Numbered from the stretch's first letter, positions 6,638 to 40,613 are shown. The stretch: 64,000 bases of DNA from a virus (IMGVR_UViG_3300031951_000044), one strand, 5' to 3'. Program-made: numbers and translations. Notes: a model not told the origin generated them from the sequence alone.

Positions 6638-6710
6638 AGTACCCCCACCTAGAATCGAACTAGGAACCGAAAATTAGAAGTTTTCTATTATATCCATTTA
6701 ACTATGGGGG
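6638..6710 (-). tRNA. tRNA-Arg (anticodon TCT)
   Basis: gene strand gcccccA...gaaaa/CTTCTAA/ttttc...cctagTTCGATTctagg-tgggggt-a; anticodon stem 5 bp, T-arm canonical, acceptor 7 bp with G1-U72; D-arm not cleanly resolved by eye. Confidence 0.6.
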
Positions 6711-6732
6711 CAAAAGTCGAACCTAAAAATGT

Positions 6733-20208: not shown

Positions 20209-20403
20209 TTATTTTTTATAACCCATTTCTACTGCTGTATCATAAGAAACATTATGTGCTGTTACACAATGTACTAAGATACCAAACACATAATAAAAAA
20301 CAGTAACATCTGTTTTTTGAACACTTACTTCGCCAATTTTACCCCATCCCCAAGGACCAACAACTACTTTTTTACCAAACAATGAATTTCTTCGATTGTT
20401 CAT
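20209..20403 (-). CDS. hypothetical protein
   Basis: co-oriented ORF. Confidence 0.4.
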   Translation of the reverse strand: MNNRRNSLFGKKVVVGPWGWGKIGEVSVQKTDVTVFYYVFGILVHCVTAHNVSYDTAVEMGYKK

Positions 20404-21380
20404 TTTTTAGAATCATAAGATTTGTTAATAACTTTAAAAGAACCATTTTCATGATTAATTACAACACCCTCAAAAGGTTTACCTTCAATTTTATCAATAC
20501 CAACCGAATATTTTTGAATCAACTCATTAGTTAATTCGACATCCAATTCAATGATATCAACGAATGGTAATTCCAATTCTTGCGCAACATTTCTAAAATA
20601 GAATCTATCGTTCTTTCTATGATATTTACGTTCTTTAATGTTATATACAGAAAACATTACCCACCCTTTTGGTTTTTGAGAATGTGGATTGTTTCCAGAA
20701 CTTTGAATCCCTTGACCAAACGACTCACCACGAATGCACAAAGAAACATTATGTTTTTTGCAATAGTCAATAAGCTTATTTTTAATGTTGTAACGAGCAA
20801 CATGTGCGGTATAGTTATTTACCGCATCCAACTTCATTTCCAAGTTTCTTCCAAGAACACCAAATTCATCAGTTTCAATGTTATAATAGAAACTACAACT
20901 TTGTCCATCAACTTTAGATGTAACATCAACAATTGAACCGAATGGAAGTTCATCAATGATATTCTCAAATCGAATTTCATCAGTGGGACCAATTCCAACC
21001 GGAAGATAACCTTTTGCTTGAAGATCTTGTGGTTGTGGTGCTTCATAATGAACAACACCAATTTGTTCACTCACATCAGAGCCAACTTGAAGATTTGATA
21101 AATCAACTGGAAGTTGTTCAAACCTAACAATAATACCTTCACTAAATTCGCCACGAAGTTTTACAGCTTTGATTCGTTTTGGTGAATATTTTCGATACTC
21201 TTCAGTCCAAGGTTCAATAGGAAGAACCGCATCAGGTCGAATATAAACAATTTTCTCACCACCCTTATAAAGTCCTTTTTGTGTAACGCATTGAAACCCA
21301 AGAATCTTAACAAGATCAAGTCTATCTGCATCAGGATGAGCTTTGACTTCAGAAATAATTTCAATCGTTGCGTCTTTCAT
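20400..21380 (-). CDS. putative RNA ligase with N-terminal tRNA-binding (Myf/EMAP-like OB) domain
   Basis: N-term HPDADRL...VLPIEP...KLRGEFSEGII = tRNA-binding OB fold; nucleotidyltransferase motif I TSKVDGQSCSFY (KxDG). Confidence 0.55.
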   Translation of the reverse strand: MKDATIEIISEVKAHPDADRLDLVKILGFQCVTQKGLYKGGEKIVYIRPDAVLPIEPWTEEYRKYSPKRIKAVKLRGEFSEGIIVRFEQLPVDLSNLQVGSDVSEQIGVVHYEAPQPQDLQAKGYLPVGIGPTDEIRFENIIDELPFGSIVDVTSKVDGQSCSFYYNIETDEFGVLGRNLEMKLDAVNNYTAHVARYNIKNKLIDYCKKHNVSLCIRGESFGQGIQSSGNNPHSQKPKGWVMFSVYNIKERKYHRKNDRFYFRNVAQELELPFVDIIELDVELTNELIQKYSVGIDKIEGKPFEGVVINHENGSFKVINKSYDSKK

Positions 21381-24142: not shown

Positions 24143-24200
24143 GTCCTTTATTTTTAAGTGGTTAGATTATACTTACTTATATATACTAGTTATGTATAAT

Positions 24201-24407
24201 TTATTCCCAAATGATAACGCCTTTCATATTACCATGTGGATTAGTAAAAACGCCTTCATCATCTAAATCATACATATCCATAGTTCCAGAAAAATCAACT
24301 TGAATTGTGTTTAATTTTCCGTCCAAATTCCAATGAAGTGTTTTTACTTTTTTAATACCCCAGTCTTTACCGTGAATGTCGGTTATTTTAATTTTTGGTT
24401 GTTTCAT
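24201..24407 (-). CDS. cassette ORF, hypothetical
   Basis: first ORF upstream of recombinase; followed upstream by attC-like site. Confidence 0.45.
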   Translation of the reverse strand: MKQPKIKITDIHGKDWGIKKVKTLHWNLDGKLNTIQVDFSGTMDMYDLDDEGVFTNPHGNMKGVIIWE

Positions 24408-24439
24408 AAACTTTTATTTTAATTTGTGAATAAACTATA

Positions 24440-24533
24440 CATAACAAGGTGTATATGTAATTTTTTTTACAAAGGTACGAATAAGTTTTGACATTTCCAA
24501 ATAAAAAACTACATATACACCCAATCGTTAGGC
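24440..24533 (-). repeat. attC-like imperfect palindrome (site A) with internal TAccTTTG promoter
   Basis: +strand cACATAAC-aa-GGTGTATATGTA ...48 nt... TACATATACACC-caatc-GTTAGGc. Confidence 0.6.
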
Positions 24534-24537
24534 GCAA

Positions 24538-24756
24538 TTACAACAAACCCTTCGAGAAAAGTTGTGCAATTTGATTTTCGGTTAAATCTTCGCCTTTGAG
24601 CATTGCAGGTTCATTTACTCTTGTGCCATCGTGTTTAATTGTGTAGGTAACAGGATACTCTTTCTTCGGGTCAACAAATTTGACCAAGTAACTGCGCCTA
24701 ACAACGTATTGCTGAACATTGCCAGCTTCGTCTTTAACTTCAACTCTGATTTTCAT
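24538..24756 (-). CDS. cassette ORF, hypothetical
   Basis: ORF bounded by repeat elements. Confidence 0.45.
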   Translation of the reverse strand: MKIRVEVKDEAGNVQQYVVRRSYLVKFVDPKKEYPVTYTIKHDGTRVNEPAMLKGEDLTENQIAQLFSKGLL

Positions 24757-24823
24757 ATTTATTTTTTTGTTTTTAATTCAACATTTGTGTTTCAAATTGG
24801 CAACGTCAGCAATACGCAAACCG

Positions 24824-25105
24824 TTATATGCCACCTTGCGGTCTCAGCAACAAGTACCATCCGTTTTTTATGACATCTTCCCAAATCAATACTTCTGCAT
24901 TCAAAGATTGTGCTTGTTCAGTTATACCACCTTGTGCAAGTTGCCAAAGCATATTCATATTCAAAACATCTTCACGACTGATAAAGTATTGTTTTTTCAG
25001 TTCCAATTTTGACCAATCCCATGTTAACCCTTTCCTTCCCAAATCAAAAAGGCGGCATATAACAGCAGTTTGGCAAGATGCGGGGTTTTGTACTTCGTTT
25101 GACAT
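24824..25105 (-). CDS. cassette ORF, hypothetical
   Basis: stop codon overlaps aaaccGTTAtatg core. Confidence 0.4.
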   Translation of the reverse strand: MSNEVQNPASCQTAVICRLFDLGRKGLTWDWSKLELKKQYFISREDVLNMNMLWQLAQGGITEQAQSLNAEVLIWEDVIKNGWYLLLRPQGGI

Positions 25106-25171
25106 ATTGTTTTTTATTTAAAAATTTGTAATTCTAATCGTCTTTAGTGCTGTAAATCCCGCACCTCGCCA

Positions 25172-25557
25172 AGCTGCGAAACGTTATGTGTAAGTGTTCC
25201 ACCCATCGTTCTAATCAACATCTATGTTTAAAATTTTAAAAGAAAAATTATTTGTTAAATGGTTCACTAAACATAGTTTTAGGATATGTTTCTTCCTTTC
25301 TACTTGAAGGGTTAAATATAGTTACTCGTCCAACACCATACGGTTGGTTATCATATTTAATAACCAAATAATCCTTTTTATTATGAAGTTGGTAATTATC
25401 TTCTGGTGCGTTTTTACATGTGACGTATAACCCATCTTTAAAGTTTTCAAATTTTTTAACTATGTTTCCCATAATCTATATATTAATTTTTCTTTTAAAA
25501 TTTTTGTTCAGTTCTCCGATTAAACATTCCACCTTAATAATCCACACCTACACATAA
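25172..25557 (-). mobile_element. conserved cassette frame copy 1 (12-bp terminal IRs GTTATGTGTARG, ~80-nt conserved subterminal arms, inner IR AAATTTTAAAAGAAAAAT) carrying ORF 25248..25472
   Basis: arms near-identical to those at 29257..29820 while enclosed ORFs are unrelated. Confidence 0.55.
25248..25472 (-). CDS. cassette ORF, hypothetical (74 aa)
   Basis: inside conserved frame. Confidence 0.45.
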   Translation of the reverse strand: MGNIVKKFENFKDGLYVTCKNAPEDNYQLHNKKDYLVIKYDNQPYGVGRVTIFNPSSRKEETYPKTMFSEPFNK

Positions 25558-25610
25558 CAAATGATAAACAACATTAAAACGATTGTTTATCATCGGACGT
25601 TATTCCCCAT

Positions 25611-26063
25611 TTAAAAAACCTCAAATGGAGACACGTAATACATATTTGGTTTATAATCTGCGTATGATACCGTTTTCTGTTGTAAATATATCTTTATACA
25701 CGATGAATCTTTTGCAGTCAACCAAAAATATTTCACATTCTTACTATATTTTTCATCGTTAATTCTATATTCTTGCCCCTTTTGAATACAAATATTTTCG
25801 TCAATAACTTGATTTCTGTTAAATTCAATAAACGCTCCATAATCTCCAATTACAATTCTTTCATATCCTTTTGAAATTATTGTACCGTTTGCTGTTTTTA
25901 ACTCAAATTCAGAATCACCATTGATATTCAAACATTTTGGTATTTCAGACAAATATTGGTTTCTTACCTTGTCAGATAATTCTGATGGAAGTTTTTTGTA
26001 TTTATATTGTAATGCTAATTCGTCTTGTAACATAAAAAATTGGATAAAAACGGGGCATAACAC
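25611..26063 (-). CDS. cassette ORF, hypothetical (150 aa)
   Basis: ORF bounded by repeat elements. Confidence 0.45.
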   Translation of the reverse strand: MLCPVFIQFFMLQDELALQYKYKKLPSELSDKVRNQYLSEIPKCLNINGDSEFELKTANGTIISKGYERIVIGDYGAFIEFNRNQVIDENICIQKGQEYRINDEKYSKNVKYFWLTAKDSSCIKIYLQQKTVSYADYKPNMYYVSPFEVF

Positions 26064-26178
26064 ACGGTATAAAAAATTGGGGCGTGTGTGCGTTCCCGAA
26101 GGTTTGTACTATTAATTATCATTGTATCGGTGCGAAAGTTTATATCTTTTAATCCCCAACTTTTCATACCGTCAACCG

Positions 26179-26481
26179 TTATGCGGGATCGAGAACAATG
26201 CCGTGCGCTTTAAACACCGCCTCGACCTCTCCGATCCCGACCGCCCACACAATATCGTGTCCTCCGGATCCATCGCTTATATGCAGTCGTTCCTGTTCTG
26301 CGAGAATCTCTCGCACCATCGCCTTCACCTCGCTCTCGGTGAACACGCGCTCTTTCTTTTCCGAGCTCGCCTGAGGCTTTTCGCCTGAGCAGCGGCGGCA
26401 CGGTCTTGGTGGATTGATGCTGATGTGACCTCCGCACTTGGAGCACTTGCCGCTCGATGGGCCTAACTTCCTTTTTGCCAT
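26179..26481 (-). CDS. GC-rich cassette ORF, zinc-ribbon-like protein
   Basis: CSKCGGH...CRRCSG; ~60% GC versus ~30% genome background; flanked by ...caaccGTTATGCgg (26171-26185) and attC-like 26521-26581. Confidence 0.5.
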   Translation of the reverse strand: MAKRKLGPSSGKCSKCGGHISINPPRPCRRCSGEKPQASSEKKERVFTESEVKAMVREILAEQERLHISDGSGGHDIVWAVGIGEVEAVFKAHGIVLDPA

Positions 26482-26520
26482 TGTACCTTTTGCTTTTTAC
26501 CGAGTGAAAAAGAATGACCC

Positions 26521-26581
26521 CGCATAACAGTCGGGTTGCCGTTATTGAATGCACAACGGCAACCCGCCGAACCGTTATGTG
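26521..26581 (-). repeat. attC-like site (site F) upstream of GC-rich cassette
   Basis: cgCATAAC-agtcg-GGTTGCCGTT-attgaatgcac-AACGGCAACC-cgccgaacc-GTTATGTg. Confidence 0.55.
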
Positions 26582-26586
26582 TAATA

Positions 26587-26994
26587 CTACATTTGTTCTC
26601 CGATTTGAGTTTCATCTGCAATATCTTTTTCTTTTCTTTTTTCTCCACGCTCTTTAAGAGTAATAATATTATTTCTCAAAGAATTTATTTTTCTTTCGTA
26701 TTCTTTGAATTTTAAATATTCATCATCATATATTTTTATTCTTTCAACATTTTCTGGTGTGTTTTCAGCCAAAGCCCAAGAATAAGTTGCTTGTAATCTT
26801 TCACCAGTTTCTTTACAAGTAAATTCATAACTGCCATTATCTCGTTGAATAACATTATTCATTATCGTTCCAATTTTAATTGGTTTACTTTCAAGTTTGT
26901 TAGGTATCCAAACCATATCTAATCTGTAAATATATTCCATATCAGATTTTGGTTTTCCATTGTCTTTATCTATTAAACAATCAAATATTCCCAT
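26587..26994 (-). CDS. cassette ORF, hypothetical
   Basis: ORF in array. Confidence 0.45.
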   Translation of the reverse strand: MGIFDCLIDKDNGKPKSDMEYIYRLDMVWIPNKLESKPIKIGTIMNNVIQRDNGSYEFTCKETGERLQATYSWALAENTPENVERIKIYDDEYLKFKEYERKINSLRNNIITLKERGEKRKEKDIADETQIGEQM

Positions 26995-26995
26995 T

Positions 26996-27595
26996 TTATT
27001 TATTATTAAATATGTTTATAATTTTTCGAATTTCATCTTGTTTCCAAGGTCTATTCTTACTGCCATCTTCAGAAATTGTTAAATAATCACCATCATATCC
27101 CAATGCTCTTTCAATTAACCAAGGTCTTGATTCTTGTTCAACTGCAATCCACCCATCTTTTGTTTTACCAATTGGAGTACTTCCTTCCTTAATTTCTTCA
27201 CTACCATCTAATGGTAATAAATCTCTTGTTTCATTATAAATTATTCTTGTATCTTTGAATAGTTCATACACTAATCCAACATCTTCACCAGTCCATTCAG
27301 TATCTTCTGTTTGATGTTCATATTTTTTAGCAAGAAAATAACCATCAGATTCTGTTCTTAAAACATATTTTTGATGTAATATTTTTCTACATTCTCTATT
27401 ATAATGGTCAATAGTGTTTTGAATATCTTCTTGTCCTTTCCAATAGTTGTCTTCGCCTACCGAAAGCGAATCACCATTTTGTGGCTGTTCACCAACAAAT
27501 TTTTGATTATCTAAACAAGCCAGTATCATTTCAAAGGAATCTTCCGATATTACAATGTTTCCTTTACCGTCTTTTTTTGCTTCAATTTTCATCAT
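26996..27595 (-). CDS. cassette ORF, hypothetical (199 aa)
   Basis: ORF in array. Confidence 0.45.
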   Translation of the reverse strand: MMKIEAKKDGKGNIVISEDSFEMILACLDNQKFVGEQPQNGDSLSVGEDNYWKGQEDIQNTIDHYNRECRKILHQKYVLRTESDGYFLAKKYEHQTEDTEWTGEDVGLVYELFKDTRIIYNETRDLLPLDGSEEIKEGSTPIGKTKDGWIAVEQESRPWLIERALGYDGDYLTISEDGSKNRPWKQDEIRKIINIFNNK

Positions 27596-27599
27596 AGTT

Positions 27600-27917
27600 T
27601 TAAATTTTAGTTTTTAACATTTCTTTATAAGCATTACCTGTATCAAATTGTTGTTCAAATGTTGGATTTGGATAATGTTCGTTTTTAATCCAATTATCGT
27701 GATGTTCAAATGTTCTCCATTCATTATCACGTAATTCTTTTACCATATTCATCAATCCAGTTCCAACTTTCATATCAGAAGGAATTTCAACTCCACCATC
27801 TGGTGTAACTTTTACAATTGTTTCTAATTTCATATTATTTATTTTTAAATTTTTCAAATTTATTTTGTCCAACCCACAAAAAAGAAAAGAAAAAGGTTCA
27901 GTTCTCCGAATGAGCAT
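27600..27917 (-). CDS. cassette ORF, hypothetical
   Basis: ORF in array. Confidence 0.45.
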   Translation of the reverse strand: MLIRRTEPFSFLFCGLDKINLKNLKINNMKLETIVKVTPDGGVEIPSDMKVGTGLMNMVKELRDNEWRTFEHHDNWIKNEHYPNPTFEQQFDTGNAYKEMLKTKI

Positions 27918-27941
27918 TTGTAGTTTAAATCCGTACTACTG

Positions 27942-28033
27942 CTAACATCGTGTATAAAACATAGCCAATTAAGGTCTGTGGTTTATATTAAGTATTGTGC
28001 GTGGCTACGTTTCATACACCCAACCGTTAGGTG
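27942..28033 (-). repeat. attC-like site (site G)
   Basis: CTAAC-atc-GTGTATAAAAC ...48 nt... GTTTCATACAC-ccaacc-GTTAGGTG. Confidence 0.55.
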
Positions 28034-28042
28034 TAATAAATT

Positions 28043-28231
28043 TTACTCCAACACACCCTTCAAAGTTCGTTTCTTCATTTCACCAAAGTTTCTTTCTTCT
28101 TCTGCCAATTTTCGTAGTTCTTCTTGAAGTTCCATTGGTATTTTATCACCATACTTACCAAGTATCTGAAATAATAATGTTTCCCTACCTAAAGAAACTT
28201 TCATATCAATTAACAGTTGTATATCTTTCAT
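28043..28231 (-). CDS. cassette ORF, hypothetical
   Basis: ORF in array. Confidence 0.4.
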   Translation of the reverse strand: MKDIQLLIDMKVSLGRETLLFQILGKYGDKIPMELQEELRKLAEEERNFGEMKKRTLKGVLE

Positions 28232-28250
28232 AATCCGTAAAATTTACATA

Positions 28251-28383
28251 CACCTAACAAAGTATAACCAAAAGTGGGGTGTAGTTCCAACATTCAGATA
28301 TTGTGCTTCTAATTTACTTTTGTAGGTAAGTCAGGGTTCGGCACTTCTAATCCCCACCTTCGGTTATACTCAACCGTTATAAG
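28251..28383 (-). repeat. attC-like site (site B), nested hairpin
   Basis: CACCTAAC-aa-AGTATAACC...aaGTGGGG...CCCCACctt...GGTTATACT-caacc-GTTATAAG. Confidence 0.6.
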
Positions 28384-28395
28384 TAATAAAACAAA

Positions 28396-28626
28396 CTACT
28401 TTATTCTGTTTATTTTTATAATAAATATTTTAGTGAAAATCATCCAGATCATAAATAAAGTTGAAGACGAAACTAAAATATTTACCAAAAATTGTTTTAC
28501 ACTGAATCCAAAGTGTGATAAATACCACCACCCACTAATAGAACTACCTATTGTTAAAAATAAACAGAATAAAATAAACAGTGTATATAATATACCATCT
28601 AGCGTAATTTGACCTTCAATTTTCAT
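28396..28626 (-). CDS. cassette ORF, small membrane protein
   Basis: hydrophobic 76-aa ORF. Confidence 0.4.
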   Translation of the reverse strand: MKIEGQITLDGILYTLFILFCLFLTIGSSISGWWYLSHFGFSVKQFLVNILVSSSTLFMIWMIFTKIFIIKINRIK

Positions 28627-28656
28627 ATTTAATTATTATTTAGTTTGTTTTACATA

Positions 28657-28813
28657 CTTATAACAACAAATATAAGAAATAAATTTTGATTTATCTAATT
28701 TTTATAGGTAAAATTTACTTCTCATATTTACAACCGTTATGCAAAAGTGTGGCAAGAAAGTTTTGTCTATAATTTGAAATTTTGGAGTTGCCACACCTTC
28801 GCATAACAACGGC
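28657..28813 (-). repeat. two adjacent attC-like sites (possible ORF-less cassette)
   Basis: cTTATAAC-aa-CAAATAT...ATATTTA-caacc-GTTATGCaa overlapping GTTATGC-aaaa-GTGTGGCAA...TTGCCACAC-cttc-GCATAACaacgg. Confidence 0.45.
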
Positions 28814-28858
28814 TAAAACGACAATATTTAAAAACTTTCCCACCGCACAATTGAACAA

Positions 28859-29182
28859 TTAAGAATTACCAAGTATAATGTCAATCACTTCTTTTGGTGC
28901 TTCTATCAATTCATCTTCACGGTATTTTCTCCATCCTGCCTGATTTTCTTCTTGTGAAATACTGTGAGCAATCACCCAAGTAAATTCTCCTTTTTCAGAA
29001 TACTTTTCTACAAATTCCTTTTGAGCAATTACATGTTTGCACAAATAAAATACCTGCGTTCCTGCATAGCAAGTTTGTGCAATCACTTCCATTACTTCCA
29101 AAGCACTCATCTGGTTCTTTGAATTGGTGTCGAATTTTCTTTTCACCAAATTGTTTACGTCAAATTTTGTTTTGATTTCCAT
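28859..29182 (-). CDS. cassette ORF, hypothetical
   Basis: ORF in array. Confidence 0.45.
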   Translation of the reverse strand: MEIKTKFDVNNLVKRKFDTNSKNQMSALEVMEVIAQTCYAGTQVFYLCKHVIAQKEFVEKYSEKGEFTWVIAHSISQEENQAGWRKYREDELIEAPKEVIDIILGNS

Positions 29183-29256
29183 TTTACTTTTTGTTTTTAA
29201 TTATTATTATTTAATTGATTAATTATTTCCCTCGCAAAAGTTTTTAAATACTGCGT

Positions 29257-29820
29257 TTAGCCGATATACGTTATGTGTAAGCGTTCCGTTCATCGTTCTA
29301 ATCAACATTTCGGTTGAAAATTTTAAAAGAAAAATCAAAATCCATAATGAAACCATTTATCATCATTTGGTAGTTGTTCTTTTAATTGTTTGTTTATTTT
29401 TCCCACTATATTTTGAGCAGTAACCGAAGTTATACCTTTAACATCAAAATCATAAGCAATTTGACCGATTGAATATACAAACATTCTCAGTAATTCTCTT
29501 GGTATATCAAATGTTATATCCACATCATAAGTATAGTTTTTACCAGAAAAGTTTATTTCGTCACTTATTGGTCGCATAACTAAGTGATGTAAATCTTCAA
29601 ACCAATCCTTACTCAGTCTTTCACAACCTTTTTTCATCATTGACTCTACCCAAGTTCCAGATGAATTCCACTCTTCTCTTGTTAGAGAAATTTTAACCAC
29701 CTTTTCAAAATAATTGATAGTTGTAATTTTTTGTTTATAATTCATATATTTTTCTTTTAAAATTTTTGTTCATTTCTACTATTTAACATTCTACCTTAAT
29801 TAACCACACCTACACATAAC
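29257..29820 (-). mobile_element. conserved cassette frame copy 2 carrying ORF 29335..29745
   Basis: acGTTATGTGTAAGcgttcc...ttctaatcaacat...aaattttaaaagaaaaat | ORF | atttttcttttaaaatttttgttca...ccacaCCTACACATAAC. Confidence 0.55.
29335..29745 (-). CDS. cassette ORF, hypothetical (136 aa)
   Basis: inside conserved frame. Confidence 0.45.
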   Translation of the reverse strand: MNYKQKITTINYFEKVVKISLTREEWNSSGTWVESMMKKGCERLSKDWFEDLHHLVMRPISDEINFSGKNYTYDVDITFDIPRELLRMFVYSIGQIAYDFDVKGITSVTAQNIVGKINKQLKEQLPNDDKWFHYGF

Positions 29821-29909
29821 AAGGTGTATAAGAAAGTTTGCTATAAAGTTCAGTGGTTAATTTGAAAGTTCATCTAAGCAAACCTTCTCATACACCCAAC
29901 CGTTATAAG
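29813..29909 (-). repeat. attC-like site (site C)
   Basis: CACATAAC-aa-GGTGTATAAG...CTCATACACC-caacc-GTTATAAG. Confidence 0.6.
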
Positions 29910-29916
29910 TAATAAT

Positions 29917-30162
29917 TTAAAATTTATTTATTATTTTATTTTCAATATATTCTTTAACTTTTGACGGTAATATTTGTGTTGGAAATGACCCTTCCGCACC
30001 AACATACATTTCACTACTTGCAACATCACTTGCATCTATTTTATAATATTGTTCATCTGGTGAACATATCGTTACATGAGTTACCTCACCCCATCTACCA
30101 GAACCAACCCAATAAAACCATAGGTCATTTCCAATATGTATTTTTCTTTTCGTTTTTTTCAT
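29917..30162 (-). CDS. cassette ORF, hypothetical
   Basis: ORF in array. Confidence 0.45.
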   Translation of the reverse strand: MKKTKRKIHIGNDLWFYWVGSGRWGEVTHVTICSPDEQYYKIDASDVASSEMYVGAEGSFPTQILPSKVKEYIENKIINKF

Positions 30163-30244
30163 AGGTATAAATTGTAAATTACATACTTATAACAGCAAAT
30201 AAAACACATTAAAACGATTGTTTATCATCAGACGTTATAAACAA

Positions 30245-30523
30245 TTAAATTATTTTCCGCAACAGTTCATCTTTATCCAAAAAAATATCATCCTGTTTAT
30301 ACCAATCATAACTAGATAAATGTCCACCTGAAGGATAGAATTGTTCATTAACTACAACCAAGTAATCAATTTCAATTCCATCCATTTGTTCCATTGTTTC
30401 GCCTTTGATATAAGGTACCCCATGAACAATTCTAATCTTTTCAATTTTACTTTTAAATATTTTTTTGGATAAAAGTATATATACTTCTTGTCCAACATCA
30501 TACTTTACATTATATGTTTTCAT
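30245..30523 (-). CDS. cassette ORF, hypothetical
   Basis: ORF in array. Confidence 0.45.
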   Translation of the reverse strand: MKTYNVKYDVGQEVYILLSKKIFKSKIEKIRIVHGVPYIKGETMEQMDGIEIDYLVVVNEQFYPSGGHLSSYDWYKQDDIFLDKDELLRKII

Positions 30524-30541
30524 AATAAAATAATTTAACGT

Positions 30542-30664
30542 GTTTATAACAACAAATATAAAACATTTATTTCAGCGTTCCAAATTTATTGTTGGTTTAT
30601 ATTTATATACTGTTTTTCAATTTAAGTTTAGTTTAAAACGTTTTATATTTGCAACCGTTATAAG
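30542..30664 (-). repeat. attC-like site (site D), perfect L boxes
   Basis: gTTTATAAC-aa-CAAATATAAAAC ...75 nt... GTTTTATATTTG-caacc-GTTATAAG. Confidence 0.6.
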
Positions 30665-30670
30665 CAAGTG

Positions 30671-32674
30671 CTACATCTCGTTTCCAAATATAGTCCCTAC
30701 ATGTAAATCTTTTTCTTTTCTTTTTTCTTCCCACGCTTTTTTTATTTCCATAGAAAGAAATGGTAAAATCGAAAAAAGTAGTTTATTTAAGTGTTTTAAA
30801 ACATAGTAAAACTCTGTTTCATATTTAATTCTCATATTGGAATTTGTGTCAGATTCATAAAATTCATTTTTAATATCCTCCGTCAACAAAGATGAATAAT
30901 AGTTTATAAATTCAACAAAACCCCTTACTGCTTTATTCAAATCAAATTCATTGACAAGTAAATCAAATTTATTTTCCAACTCTTTTACTTTAAAAAAAAT
31001 ATTTTCATCAACTTTTGTTTCATCATAATCATATATATATAGATTATTAAATAAATAACGGAGAAAGTTTCTTATTTTAAAATATTGTTTACCAGAGTTT
31101 TTTAATGAATCTTCCGAAAAGACAATATCGTTTTTAAAATCTGACAGTAAAACCCATAGTCTTAATACATCAGGGTTATATGTTTCATACAGCTTTTCCA
31201 AACTTCCGCCATTACCTTTTGATTTTGATAGTTTTTCTAATGTGTTATCAACAATAAATCCGTGTGTTATTATTCTTTTTGTTGGTACTCGACCAATCAT
31301 TGATGCTAATATAATCGAACTTTGAAACCACCCTCTGTGTTGGTCTGAACCTTCAATGTATATATCGGCAGGTTTATCATACATCATAAATGTAGAACCA
31401 CTATCAAACCAAACATCCAATATATCATTACTATTAGGTATTTTAACACCCCATTTTCTTTGTCTTGAAATACACCAATCTTTGCGTGAAAATATTGTCG
31501 TTGATAAACGATTTCTGTCTTTTGATGATAACTTTATTTCTTTTAAACAAGTCTTTATTTTGTTTAAATCAAAATCAAGATACGTTTGTTCCGTTAATAC
31601 TTTATACACCTTATTCCCTTCACGCCAATCAATTGGATAATCGTGTGTGTAAATTTCACGTTTATATACAAACTTTTCATCAATTTTAAAATCTTCTATG
31701 TGTTTTAATAAGCCGATTTTATCGCACACATTTTTGGGGGTTATGTTATTATCCATTAAAATTCGATAATCTTCATCACCGTGTCCACCGCAAAGATGTA
31801 CTATACCTGTTTTATCATCTGAAACGTAGTCATCATAAATAATTGGACATAAATCTCCATTGTGGTTATGATATGACTTAATATTACTCACATCAAACAA
31901 ATCATAATCTAAATTATTTTCAATAGCAAAACTTTCACTACAAATAATATTGTCAACAGTTTTAACATATTTTATATTATTACTTAAACATACTGCCTGA
32001 TTTCCGTTTACAGTCCATTCTGTTGTTGTCCAAACAAGTAATTTAAAACTATCAGAGTTGAATAGAAAATACAAAGATTCATCTTCTATTTTTTTATATT
32101 CAATTTCTGAGTTAGCCAATACTGTTTTTAATGTTGGTGAGTACCAAGTAGGCTTATTCTTTTTAAGAATTAGACCCGCATTTAGTAGTTGGTGGTATAT
32201 ATATAATTCTCTTTCTATAAAATCAATATCCATAGTTTTAAACCTACCTTCAGTTGGATAAATCCCGAAAAGTTCAAGAGTTTTATTTTGAATATCACAA
32301 TATTTGGTTGCGACTAATTTAGCATTTTGAATTAAATCACCACTCATTTCTTTTGCTTTATTTTCAATGGGTAAACCATGACAGTCCCAACCAAATGAAA
32401 CCCTAACTTTCTTACCTTTTGTTAAGTAATATTTTACAACAAAATCTTTCAAGGTTTTGTTTAAAAAATGTCCCAAATGTAATTCTCCATTGGCGTATGG
32501 TTCACCATCTTGTATAATGTATTCATCATTTGAATTTTCATACAAGTTGTTCACATAATCTTTGATAGAAGCGTTCAATAAAGTAAGTTTATCTCTATCT
32601 AACTTCTGTGTAATTTCTTCTTTTGGTAATAATACTTTATTCATTATTTTAAATTTTATTTTCCCACCACACAA
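30671..32674 (-). CDS. ileS: minimalist isoleucyl-tRNA synthetase-like class I aaRS (667 aa)
   Basis: PYANGELHLGH (HIGH), GWDCHGLPIE, WTTTEWT, DWCISRQRKWGV, DVWFDSGST, EGSDQHRGWF, KLSKSKGN (KMSKS) - IleRS signature blocks; CP1 and C-terminal regions much shorter than bacterial IleRS. Confidence 0.7.
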   Translation of the reverse strand: MCGGKIKFKIMNKVLLPKEEITQKLDRDKLTLLNASIKDYVNNLYENSNDEYIIQDGEPYANGELHLGHFLNKTLKDFVVKYYLTKGKKVRVSFGWDCHGLPIENKAKEMSGDLIQNAKLVATKYCDIQNKTLELFGIYPTEGRFKTMDIDFIERELYIYHQLLNAGLILKKNKPTWYSPTLKTVLANSEIEYKKIEDESLYFLFNSDSFKLLVWTTTEWTVNGNQAVCLSNNIKYVKTVDNIICSESFAIENNLDYDLFDVSNIKSYHNHNGDLCPIIYDDYVSDDKTGIVHLCGGHGDEDYRILMDNNITPKNVCDKIGLLKHIEDFKIDEKFVYKREIYTHDYPIDWREGNKVYKVLTEQTYLDFDLNKIKTCLKEIKLSSKDRNRLSTTIFSRKDWCISRQRKWGVKIPNSNDILDVWFDSGSTFMMYDKPADIYIEGSDQHRGWFQSSIILASMIGRVPTKRIITHGFIVDNTLEKLSKSKGNGGSLEKLYETYNPDVLRLWVLLSDFKNDIVFSEDSLKNSGKQYFKIRNFLRYLFNNLYIYDYDETKVDENIFFKVKELENKFDLLVNEFDLNKAVRGFVEFINYYSSLLTEDIKNEFYESDTNSNMRIKYETEFYYVLKHLNKLLFSILPFLSMEIKKAWEEKRKEKDLHVGTIFGNEM

Positions 32675-39539: not shown

Positions 39540-40613
39540 TTAATCTTCTTTATTCCAATAAGGTTTTTGATATTTTGGTCTTACCAAATCCCAAATTAGT
39601 GGTTTATAATTTCTATTATCCAACATCGAATACAATATTTTTTGATATCTTGGAATCACATTCGATTGTATCCATAATGCTTTATCTTTTCTATTTTCAA
39701 GTTGTTGATTATTGAGTTCATCTTTTTTTGTATTGCAGACTGATAAAATGTAATCAAAAGACTTGTTCAAGTCAAATATCTTACCTCTAACCCACTTATC
39801 AAATTCATCTGGAACTTTATTCAAGAACGCATAAATATCATCTTCGTTTTTCAAACATTCCCAAATATCAACGTTTGAAAAATTGGTTATTAATTTATGC
39901 AAACGAACATATTCATCAAATTTAATTTTGATTCGATAGTTAGATGGTTCAAATTTAATAATATAACCCTCTCTATTTTCTTCAAAAGAATTCTTTAATG
40001 ATTTATAATCAAATACATTTCCATATTCTTTAACAATATGTGAATTGGGTATTTGACAACGATTAAATTCTTCTTTGCACTGAGACCAAGAAAGTTCCTT
40101 ATCTTTATGATAGATGGATAAGAAAAATAGTTTTTCCTCATTATAAACCACAACAATCGTGTTTTCAACATAAATTATTTCAACTAGATATGTGTATTCC
40201 GGATTTAACAAATCAACACGATACAAATTATGTAATATTTCCTCAGCTTTTTGCGCTTGTTCAGACATAAAAGAACCTCTGGTTGCTACATTCCACTTAT
40301 TATCATAATAATAAATAATTCCAAGTGATCCATCACATTTATCTTGCACAATCGGATTTTCTTTTACAATAATATTAAACGCGGAGTGATTTTGTGGTAA
40401 TTCTTCATAATTAAAAAACTTTGAGAATCCTCTAGCAATTAAATTACCGTTCTCATCAAGAATGAGACCACGACAATTAAGCGTAATATCGTCCCACTTA
40501 TTATCAAACTGAGTTTTTCTTGAGTAATTATAAATAAAAAGATTTTTGGTTGGGTGTTTTGTTTCTTCTACCCAACCATCAATAACATATTGCTTTATTT
40601 TATTATGATTCAC
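39540..40613 (-). CDS. RNA ligase, T4 Rnl1-like
   Basis: motif I KCDGSLGIIYY (T4 Rnl1 KEDGSL); 357 aa. Confidence 0.6.
   Translation of the reverse strand: MNHNKIKQYVIDGWVEETKHPTKNLFIYNYSRKTQFDNKWDDITLNCRGLILDENGNLIARGFSKFFNYEELPQNHSAFNIIVKENPIVQDKCDGSLGIIYYYDNKWNVATRGSFMSEQAQKAEEILHNLYRVDLLNPEYTYLVEIIYVENTIVVVYNEEKLFFLSIYHKDKELSWSQCKEEFNRCQIPNSHIVKEYGNVFDYKSLKNSFEENREGYIIKFEPSNYRIKIKFDEYVRLHKLITNFSNVDIWECLKNEDDIYAFLNKVPDEFDKWVRGKIFDLNKSFDYILSVCNTKKDELNNQQLENRKDKALWIQSNVIPRYQKILYSMLDNRNYKPLIWDLVRPKYQKPYWNKED

Follow-up and report, generated by a model that had tools for sequence, protein, structure and literature searches.

Integrons, the clusters of attC sites without an integrase (CALINs) and the promoter early stem-loops (PeSLs) of T4-type phages are the described systems that come closest to the locus analysed here, an array of small gene cassettes in the 64,000-nucleotide (nt) stretch IMGVR_UViG_3300031951_000044 (the window, meaning the whole stretch), which is from a large uncultured phage. 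CALINs of virulent phages possess two to four attC sites and no cognate integrase, and were found to be functional with the bacterial integrase IntI1 (Qi et al., 2023, PMC9892861). PeSLs combine a sigma-70-like promoter with a terminator; their sequence is conserved, and homologous recombination is the sole route by which they act (Arbiol et al., 2010, PMC2839356; Comeau et al., 2014, PMC4122927). The internal proteins of T-even phages, in turn, are small injected proteins, highly diverse and with only a capsid-targeting sequence in common (PMC3012670). Neither a phage-owned system of recombinase plus array nor a reused cassette frame was found described in our literature searches. Both are the subject of the present study, which concerns two units of the array (A and B) with a shared non-coding frame around unrelated open reading frames (ORFs).

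Units A and B are best read as two cassettes of a phage-encoded integron-like array, in which site-specific shuffling of cassettes would be combined with an exchange of cargo through the arms of the frame; we hold this reading to be moderately probable, and its mechanism was inferred throughout from comparative sequence. The arms themselves are the non-coding frame of one abundant cassette family, to which A and B both belong. Gene orientation corresponds to the minus strand of the window, and the features needed for the argument are these:

25183-25558, minus strand: unit A, a cassette body of 376 nt bounded by GTTATGTGTAAG / CCTACACATAAC
25183-25247, minus strand: 3' arm of unit A (left arm of the first-pass annotation), with core box, GAAC-rich middle segment and inner repeat (25230-25250)
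25248-25472, minus strand: cargo ORF A, 74 amino acids (aa), without leader peptide
25473-25558, minus strand: 5' arm of unit A (right arm of the first-pass annotation), with inner repeat (25484-25504), middle segment and core box
29270-29820, minus strand: unit B, a cassette body with the frame as in unit A
29335-29745, minus strand: cargo ORF B, 136 aa, without leader peptide
24189-30663, minus strand: array of 13 bodies (X1-X13) alternating with 13 hairpin sites (Y1-Y13), lying between a recombinase and a synthetase gene (30671-32674)
25057-25189, minus strand: hairpin site Y3 (ATATAAC...GTTATGT), on the downstream side of unit A; stem of 24 bp, 20 positions paired, and spacers measuring 1 and 5 nt
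25552-25605, minus strand: hairpin site Y4, beta type, upstream of unit A; fold z = -3.15
28802-29276, minus strand: hairpin site Y10, downstream of unit B; atypical, its 28-bp stem enclosing a 107-aa ORF (28859-29182)
29814-29908, minus strand: hairpin site Y11, of the alpha type, on the upstream side of unit B; stem of 20 bp, 18 positions paired, and spacers measuring 2 and 5 nt; fold z = -2.76
27896-27918, minus strand: third, incomplete copy of the middle segment of the 5' arm (GTTCAGTTCTCCGAATGAGCATT), located upstream of the three-ORF cassette X7; member of repeat family D12 with 87% identity
23342-24142, minus strand: tyrosine recombinase, Xer-like, 266 aa; Pfam Phage_integrase 1.9e-37
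24171-24188, minus strand: attI-like junction that separates the recombinase gene from the first cassette; it reads ACTTACTTATATATACTA on the plus strand and ...ATAAC followed by TAGTATATATAAGT on the gene strand

The presence of two units with a common frame, as proposed in the first-pass annotation, was borne out by repeat alignment: one arm (25172-25248 vs 29259-29335) is 84% identical over 77 nt and the other (25486-25560 vs 29748-29822) 91% identical over 75 nt, the arms in A and B measuring 65-86 nt. The bounds required adjustment. The starts, formerly placed at 25172 and 29257, were moved to the GTT at 25183 and 29270, because the first ~12 nt belong to hairpin sites beyond it, and the ends are the AAC at 25558 and 29820. 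Terminal inverted repeats of 12 bp do exist (GTTATGTGTAAG at 25183-25194 and 29270-29281, CCTACACATAAC at 25547-25558 and 29809-29820; 11 of 12 positions pair), but they represent GTTRRRY / RYYYAAC core boxes shared with the flanking hairpins, and the outer ~14 nt of the arm are part of a hairpin stem. An inner inverted repeat of 19-21 nt was found around the ORF as announced; in unit A it comprises 21 nt with 100% complementarity (25230-25250 / 25484-25504), in unit B 19 nt (29317-29335 / 29748-29766) that abut the stop and start codons of ORF B. The 19-mer AAAATTTTAAAAGAAAAAT has exactly four copies in 64 kb, all of them inner repeats of A and B; the 18-mer CATCGTTCTAATCAACAT has two copies in the window vs 0.14 expected and a 26-nt degenerate pattern of the right arm two vs 0.00 expected. 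In both units an unrelated ORF exactly fills the gap between the inner repeats. The dissimilarity of the two ORFs was upheld, since BLASTP gave no alignment at E<=100 and hhalign between the family profiles (24 and 7 sequences) a probability of 0.2%.

Bodies of the array start with GTTRRRY, end with RYYYAAC and contain ORFs, whereas the hairpins start with RYYYAAC and end with GTTRRRY; 12 of the 13 hairpins are 54-139 nt long, and one atypical site has 475 nt. With the exception of the latter, they present the traits of attC-type sites, that is, imperfect palindromes of ~55-140 nt with R''/R' boxes and paired L boxes. A hairpin finder that called a site where AAC and GTT boxes occurred together with pairing of both the R boxes and the stem returned 11 sites within 24439-30663 (6.3 kb), compared with one marginal match in the remaining 57 kb. 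By hand count the stems of the 13 sites comprise 12-35 bp, mostly 83-95% paired, with R boxes paired at 5-7 of 7 positions and plus-strand spacers of 2-3 nt on the 5' side vs 5-7 nt on the 3' side in 10 sites. Folded as single-stranded DNA, eight of 11 sites formed the expected long stem (z from -0.5 to -5.3), and the stem of Y3 was recovered by the minimum-energy fold. Several unrelated sequence families occur among the hairpins of the window, and those around A (Y3, Y4) and B (Y10, Y11) are unrelated to one another. Among 121 hairpin sites across 53 loci, the spacer on the AAC side is the longer one (in gene orientation, by ~3 nt) in 113 of 117 orientable sites; the sites thus have a polarity, and it agrees with the direction of the genes. 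All of the at least 13 array ORFs read towards the recombinase, so that the hairpin lies upstream of the ORF grouped with it. As every body is terminated by inverted repeats of 10-27 nt, which extend past the 7-bp core, the 12-bp repeats of A and B are one case of a general property of the array.

The best NCBIfam models of the recombinase are XerA_Arch/integron integrase (195 bits), XerC (161) and integron integrase (161), all under their curated cut-offs; for TIGR02249 (integrase_gron) the 161 bits are split into two stretches and face a cut-off of 265. The alignment with VchIntIA (2a3v) is in two pieces and skips chain 177-260, a stretch spanned by residues 174-209 of the query; only 35 residues take its place, and ~48 aa are absent. 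Since the stretch of the 2a3v chain with the IntI-specific domain is missing, the recombinase is not an IntI by the defining criterion. Residues contacting extrahelical bases (K209, Y210, W219, P232, H240, H241) belong mostly to the IntI-specific domain (PMC3053210), and the stretch absent from the window recombinase is where most of them (K209-H241) lie. Homologues with 57-82% identity directly follow arrays in seven other contigs. In eight independent loci the last body ends in ...RYATAAC, followed by TA(T/G/C)NWTATAT, ~45-55 nt upstream of the recombinase start codon; this junction is conserved and, judged by its position, attI-like.

Outward from the recombinase, which reads away, the order is junction, body, hairpin, body, hairpin, and thus the canonical layout. 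Small, mostly ORFan cassettes between imperfect palindromes bounded by RYYYAAC/GTTRRRY are shared with integrons and CALINs, and further likenesses to integrons are the tyrosine recombinase gene, which adjoins one end and reads away from the array, the conserved junction at the attI position, a hairpin distal to the recombinase relative to the body, and the occurrence of cassettes with foreign GC content. Unlike in integrons, the recombinase is devoid of the IntI-specific domain, its best scores being to Xer-type models; in canonical cassettes the ORFs point away from intI/attI and have attC downstream, whereas here they read towards the recombinase with the hairpin upstream; polarity is given by a 2- vs 5-nt spacer asymmetry instead of 2-3 extrahelical bases on the folded bottom strand; and the bodies possess terminal repeats of 10-27 nt. 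The phage CALINs of Qi et al. (2023) differ in yet another respect, in that the present system is phage-owned and recurs in dozens of contigs. It is not a canonical integron, because its recombinase has no IntI domain and its ORFs read towards that recombinase, and it was not filed under the integron family for want of the IntI domain, extrahelical bases and canonical ORF orientation; we infer an array integron-like in operation without being a family member. The earlier proposal of a recombination module accords with this, as the frame lies within what appears to be an integron-type recombination system. This system suggests that arrays of cassettes with hairpin sites can dispense with the IntI-specific domain, and IntI-less arrays of this sort bear on the evolution of integrases from Xer-type enzymes.

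Both the arms and the recombinase were found again on IMG/VR viral contigs. The left-arm 18-mer occurs in 13 viral contigs, the right-arm 17-mer in 33, and the right arm with the inner repeat in at least 116 metagenome contigs. True frames were also present in ~10 low-GC contigs of metagenome-assembled genomes (MAGs) binned to unrelated taxa, which are probably phage contigs; matches of the 17-mer in bacterial genome contigs are partly due to chance. A pooled set of 111 distinct complete units was compiled from viral, MAG and metagenome contigs, many of which may represent one phage sampled repeatedly, and the following counts refer to this set. Unit length ranges from 376 to 1934 nt (median 703), and mean pairwise identity without gaps amounts to 88% over the last 66 nt (3' arm) and 81% over the first 72 nt (5' arm) vs 31% in mid-unit. 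The inner repeats were recognised in 107 and 105 of the units. In gene orientation the common frame reads as follows:

5' start: GTTATGTGTAGGTGTGG, then ATTAAGGTAGAATGTTTAATCGGAGAACTGAAC, then the inner repeat AAAAATTTTAAAAGAAAAAG
after the 5' inner repeat: AAGGGTGGGAATTTT...TATTTATATATAAAAGAAAACA, then ATG and leader, variable cargo and stop codon
3' part: AAGTGGGTGGGA, then the inner repeat partner TTTTTCTTTTAAAATTTT, then CAACCGAAATGTTGATTAGAACGATGAACGGAACACTTACACATAAC

In most members the 5' arm runs on through a G-rich box and an AT-rich TATATA box into the leader. The middle segments of the two arms are direct repeats of each other and contain (A/T)GAAC motifs, which also fill the hairpin loops, with GAAC counted 16 times vs GTTC twice on the gene strand of hairpins plus arms (1.6 kb); these motifs may be candidate binding sites for an accessory protein. 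In the 3' arm of one locus (L030) a GAAC-containing unit of 12 nt (ACGATAAACGGA) is triplicated. The G-rich box (GGGTGGGA and variants) is itself a direct repeat, placed after the 5' inner repeat and just before the 3' one, and its copies co-vary inside one unit, as in GGTAGGATTT / GGTAGAATTT of L006. T-runs with GTGGGTTGG-like boxes also precede the ORFs of other cassettes, for instance at 27870-27895 in the window.

BLASTP sorts the cargos, once stripped of the leader, into 56 clusters. The idea of a repeatedly used shell with swapped cargo thus gained considerably, as the two copies first described have become 111 through the search in relatives. The comparisons drawn at that time fared differently. 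With the VCR (Vibrio cholerae repeat) families of Vibrio chromosomal integrons the frame has in common that one repeated element occurs many times around unrelated ORFs. The Vibrio repeat is, however, the attC site itself, whereas here the conserved part lies inside the body; the arms are not recombination sites, and the hairpins lie outside the bodies and differ on both sides of A and B. The second comparison was with miniature inverted-repeat transposable elements (MITEs), and terminal inverted repeats with conserved subterminal arms around variable content would indeed suit a MITE-like, non-autonomous transposon with passenger ORFs. A carrier of this type is scarcely credible, given that no empty frame was found among the 111 distinct units, of which the shortest complete one, unit A with 376 nt, still holds an ORF, and that neither target-site duplications at the unit ends nor an associated transposase were detected. 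Nor are the copies dispersed: the upstream flank is one of two hairpin types in 102 of the 110 units with readable flank (an alpha-type hairpin end precedes the frame in 82/111 units, the beta type, as Y4, in 20/111), and all 111 copies adjoin array-type sequence or a recombinase junction. Downstream flanks are hairpin-like, an attI-like junction or other sequence. In the scan of viral contigs, a locus with inner repeats within 30 nt (L014) was rejected as an empty frame and identified as an unrelated terminator hairpin.

Leaders resembling MKDLKQFIKTTIREFLNE were recognised in 72 units and MSKEMREQINKVKNWxQFLNEN-like leaders in 16, with variants in several more; they are 18-21 aa long and are missing from ~8-10 units including A and B, no ORF of the window carrying one. 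Part of the frame is therefore coding in most members, and not in A or B. Of 42 leader-bearing ORFs, about 10 are situated outside the canonical frame. The leader occurs, for example, at L013, L017 and L040 and is common to at least 88 small proteins with no other relationship, among them GNAT, ART-PolyVal and PARP-like cargos. The arms might accordingly be taken for conserved 5' and 3' untranslated regions of one paralogous family with ORFs as diverged homologues, an explanation which the first-pass annotation had raised itself and for which the leader and its upstream region, common to ~88 of the 111 members, could be cited. It fails for A and B, where neither a leader nor BLASTP or profile similarity exists and where homologues of cargo B occur without any frame; and with 56 clusters of leader-stripped cargos that include unrelated Pfam folds, it is very improbable altogether.

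Pfam searches on ten cargos identified two GNAT acetyltransferases, one ART-PolyVal ADP-ribosyltransferase and one PARP-like domain. Cargo A, which has homologues in eight clusters and no Pfam match, was modelled with AlphaFold2 as a small beta protein (predicted local distance difference test, pLDDT, 72); the model of cargo B (24 homologue clusters, pLDDT 90.9) had no match in the PDB at E<=0.001. One frame copy (L048) holds a 321-aa cargo with a DNA-methyltransferase-like motif (DLILTDLPYG) in a unit of 1934 nt, for which reason the frame is not confined to very small ORFs. The leader MKDLKQFIKTTIREFLNE ends in LNE, a pattern resembling that of the T4 capsid-targeting sequence MKTYQEFIAE, which is cleaved after (L/I)xE, and by analogy leader-bearing products may be targeted to the virion as this sequence does. 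A short N-terminal peptide before unrelated small proteins is likewise known from the T-even internal proteins (IPI, IPII, IPIII, Alt), and the leader-bearing cargos include an ADP-ribosyltransferase, as Alt is. The likeness is nevertheless one of sequence pattern only and does not extend to A and B, which have no leader, and T4 internal protein genes are not organised as recombinase-linked cassettes.

The joining of an ORF to a recombination site, and with it the origin of integron cassettes, is a long-standing open question. A homologue of cargo B in L073, 82% identical, resides in the same frame with a different upstream hairpin, while those at 75, 71, 65 and 54% identity are frame-less, tightly packed phage genes without arms, repeats or boxes, which adjoin thymidylate synthase or RNA ligase genes. 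Similarity to these frame-less homologues spans the ORF from ATG to stop codon. As the distant homologues are ordinary phage genes, the cargo was captured into the frame, and the family of cargo B, with ordinary and in-frame members and junctions at start and stop codons, offers before-and-after pairs for cassette origin. A homologue of cargo A (77% identical) possesses a shorter frame, consisting of core boxes and a AATATATAGATT-ATG junction, with neither middle segments nor inner repeats. The inner repeats of A, B and L032 lie within 0-14 nt of the ORF, and in one MAG copy the inner repeat is joined directly to the leader ATG, which marks the end of the inner repeat as a recurrent joint. The inner repeat follows a wider rule of this array, by which non-coding cassette DNA is self-complementary as far as the ORF, and it could favour template switching at the stem base. 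Its interpretation as a generic translation-initiation region was abandoned, because AAAGAA-type motifs are not enriched upstream of the 109 ORFs of the window.

Three observations favour the hairpin together with its downstream ORF as the co-mobile unit: the array begins with a hairpin beside the synthetase gene and ends with a body abutting the junction; L017 and L028 have one hairpin plus body in common and nothing else; and among near-identical bodies of the frame family in different contigs the upstream hairpin alone is shared in nine pairs (~7 independent) and the downstream one alone in a single pair. The linkage test over all cassettes had given only four homologous pairs and was hence repeated on the frame family. 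The polarity assumed first by analogy with extrahelical bases, with the hairpin downstream of its ORF, is contradicted by the array ends and the flank linkage. Identity between related contigs ends exactly at the boxes, and an identical body was encountered in three different contexts (L006, L007, L011). In 30 further pairs of near-identical bodies, the hairpins on both sides are different.

These 30 pairs would also be expected if the body alone were the site-specific mobile unit, its GTT...AAC terminal repeats pairing with each other and the hairpins serving as a fixed scaffold. The terminal inverted repeats of 10-27 nt in all bodies, beyond the 7-bp core, and the B-in-frame cassette, whose upstream hairpin differs between the window and L073, agree with such a unit. 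Yet inverted sites recombine to give inversions instead of excision, and none of the bodies was seen inverted; the bias of 9:1 indicates that hairpin and body often move together; and the arms give homology enough for hairpin-independent exchange without a new mechanism. We therefore rate movement of the body alone as decidedly unlikely.

The PeSLs deserve a closer comparison. There, too, conserved short stem-loop elements without coding function border small ORFs that are non-essential, within the hyperplastic region of a large phage, and are exchange points between otherwise unrelated sequences; here, by contrast, hairpin sequences vary widely, the hairpins possess core boxes of integron type and have a recombinase linked to them, and the conserved element, the frame, brackets the ORF on both sides. 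The hairpins could accordingly be PeSL-like regulatory elements only, all shuffling being homologous, between hairpins and between arms, and the recombinase an unrelated enzyme of lysogeny or resolution. PeSLs do border small ORFan genes, bring about modular shuffling and give rise to mini-circles in T4-type phages (PMC2839356, PMC4122927), the window stems from a large phage that encodes RNA ligases of T4 type and a gp46-like SbcC, the 30 pairs of identical bodies between different hairpins fit homologous exchange, and within one phage population the array showed no variation. Such an origin of the array is nonetheless unlikely, if well worth weighing: the hairpins, diverse as they are, keep their AAC/GTT boxes and a fixed polarity; PeSLs are sequence-conserved with sigma-70-like promoters, none of which are enriched here; a conserved junction joins array and recombinase in eight independent loci; identity between related contigs stops at the boxes; the 9:1 asymmetry of hairpin and body is not expected from symmetric homologous exchange; and a cassette with 55% GC is situated inside an array with ~28% GC.

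For the preferred reading, a phage-encoded integron-like array, the following course of events is proposed. The recombinase would move cassettes at the hairpin boxes, the hairpin usually going with the ORF downstream of it, and the terminal core boxes, extended to ~14 bp, would pair to close the hairpin stem in the circular cassette. The arms (65-120 nt, 80-90% identical between copies) would serve as portable homology, through which general recombination or copy-choice between co-infecting phages could swap the cargo and keep the shell. A double crossover or copy-choice within the arms would be the simplest account of the 30 pairs, following the same logic as the PeSLs of T4-type phages. In addition, the frame probably supplies expression signals.

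Several observations weigh against this reading. The 30 pairs that differ in both flanks leave the site-specific unit without a clean definition, and a crossover at both boxes would account for them no less well than homologous exchange; moreover, the body pairs of the flank-linkage test are not all independent. The eight contigs of the window's phage show the same array wherever it is covered and give no direct sign of ongoing shuffling. The recombinase is without the alpha-I2 helix and beta-4,5 region that make up the IntI-specific domain, clear extrahelical bases are absent from the 13 hairpins, whose L stems are mostly bulge-free, and with fold z above -1.6 seven of 11 hairpins are weak on energy alone. 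The hairpin finder is home-made, and like the thresholds for flank identity it is ad hoc. In the 24 units inspected, most changes in the inner repeat have no compensating partner; its pairing is therefore perhaps not under selection, and the claim that it is was dropped. Sigma-70-type promoter matches are not enriched (42 vs 38.8 expected), nor are intrinsic terminator-like sites (1 vs 2.2 expected), in a scan that is not decisive, as the host is probably of a Bacteroidota type with other signals.

That a shared frame surrounds at least 56 unrelated small genes suggests phages with an accessory-gene swapping system of their own, and its presence in at least 116 metagenome contigs points to a dedicated and widespread mechanism that diversifies small accessory phage proteins. 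A more far-reaching interpretation, put forward tentatively and with less than even confidence, is that a lineage of large uncultured phages possesses an IntI-independent analogue of the integron, in which a Xer-like recombinase shuffles cassettes bounded by hairpins and the frame acts as a plug-in vector that loads arbitrary ORFs, of phage or foreign origin, with ORF-level precision and diversifies injected effector or anti-defence proteins. The frame would then comprise, with the same reserve, core boxes, homology arms, expression signals and an optional virion-targeting leader, and would constitute, if this is true, a natural device for making new cassettes. ADP-ribosyltransferase and acetyltransferase cargos behind a leader like the T4 capsid-targeting sequence are candidates for injected factors of host takeover or anti-defence, and frame plus leader could be used as a search handle for them.

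Contigs that encode an identical recombinase carry an identical array where it is covered. Three of the eight metagenome contigs with identical recombinase (L069, L071, L072) end within or right beside the array, which could reflect heterogeneity or repeats that break assembly.

Some members of the array depart from the general pattern. Hairpin Y12 (30187-30240) is a degenerate copy of the beta-type Y4 (78% identical, repeat D7) with a mutated 5' stem half, and the closed hairpin fold is lost. At 28736-29276 the cassette appears inside out: body X10 (28736-28808) comprises 73 nt with a 20-nt terminal repeat and no ORF, while the 107-aa ORF of Y10 occupies the loop, normally small, and is flanked on the gene strand by the direct repeats TGCGAGGGAAA / TGCGGTGGGAAA. 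A miRNA-precursor match on X10, obtained with Rfam in E-value mode over 24-31 kb, was dismissed as chance. Cassette X7 (26574-27946) contains three co-oriented ORFs of 135, 199 and ~77-105 aa and is almost without terminal repeat, yet the incomplete copy of the 5' middle segment at 27896-27918 is part of it. The ORFs at 24538-24756 and 24824-25105 begin within the hairpin sites Y2 and Y3, and the latter ORF covers the entire body X3 and overlaps both neighbouring sites. Body X6 (26178-26528) has 55% GC vs ~28% in its array neighbours and on this account probably derives from another genome; its ORF (26179-26481, 100 aa) displays a CxxC...CxxC motif. X2 and X3 have 38-40% GC, and all three cassettes are probably foreign.

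The window as a whole has ~29% GC, with ORFs almost all on the minus strand over the 64 kb. Unit B with its hairpin had no blastn match among 50,697 phage records, the SbcC-like protein has matches only in distant uncultured huge phages, and the nearest integrases of cultured phages, from Cellulophaga and Polaribacter phages, reach at most 41% identity to the window recombinase. The 25 nt upstream of 109 minus-strand ORFs are A-rich, G-poor and without Shine-Dalgarno motif (GGAG in 1/109), and it is on this ground that the host is considered to be probably a Bacteroidota-type organism. Rfam at gathering thresholds, applied to the whole window, reported two tRNAs and nothing else. Beyond the array the following genes were located:

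2788-2861 and 6640-6711: two tRNA genes (Rfam at gathering thresholds)
20400-21380 and 39540-40613: two different T4-type RNA ligases, Rnl2-like and T4 Rnl1-like
30671-32674: class-I aminoacyl-tRNA synthetase gene, directly beside the array

A gp46-like SbcC is encoded in the window as well, and the tRNA genes, the synthetase and the RNA ligases together look like a toolkit for tRNA repair and translation.

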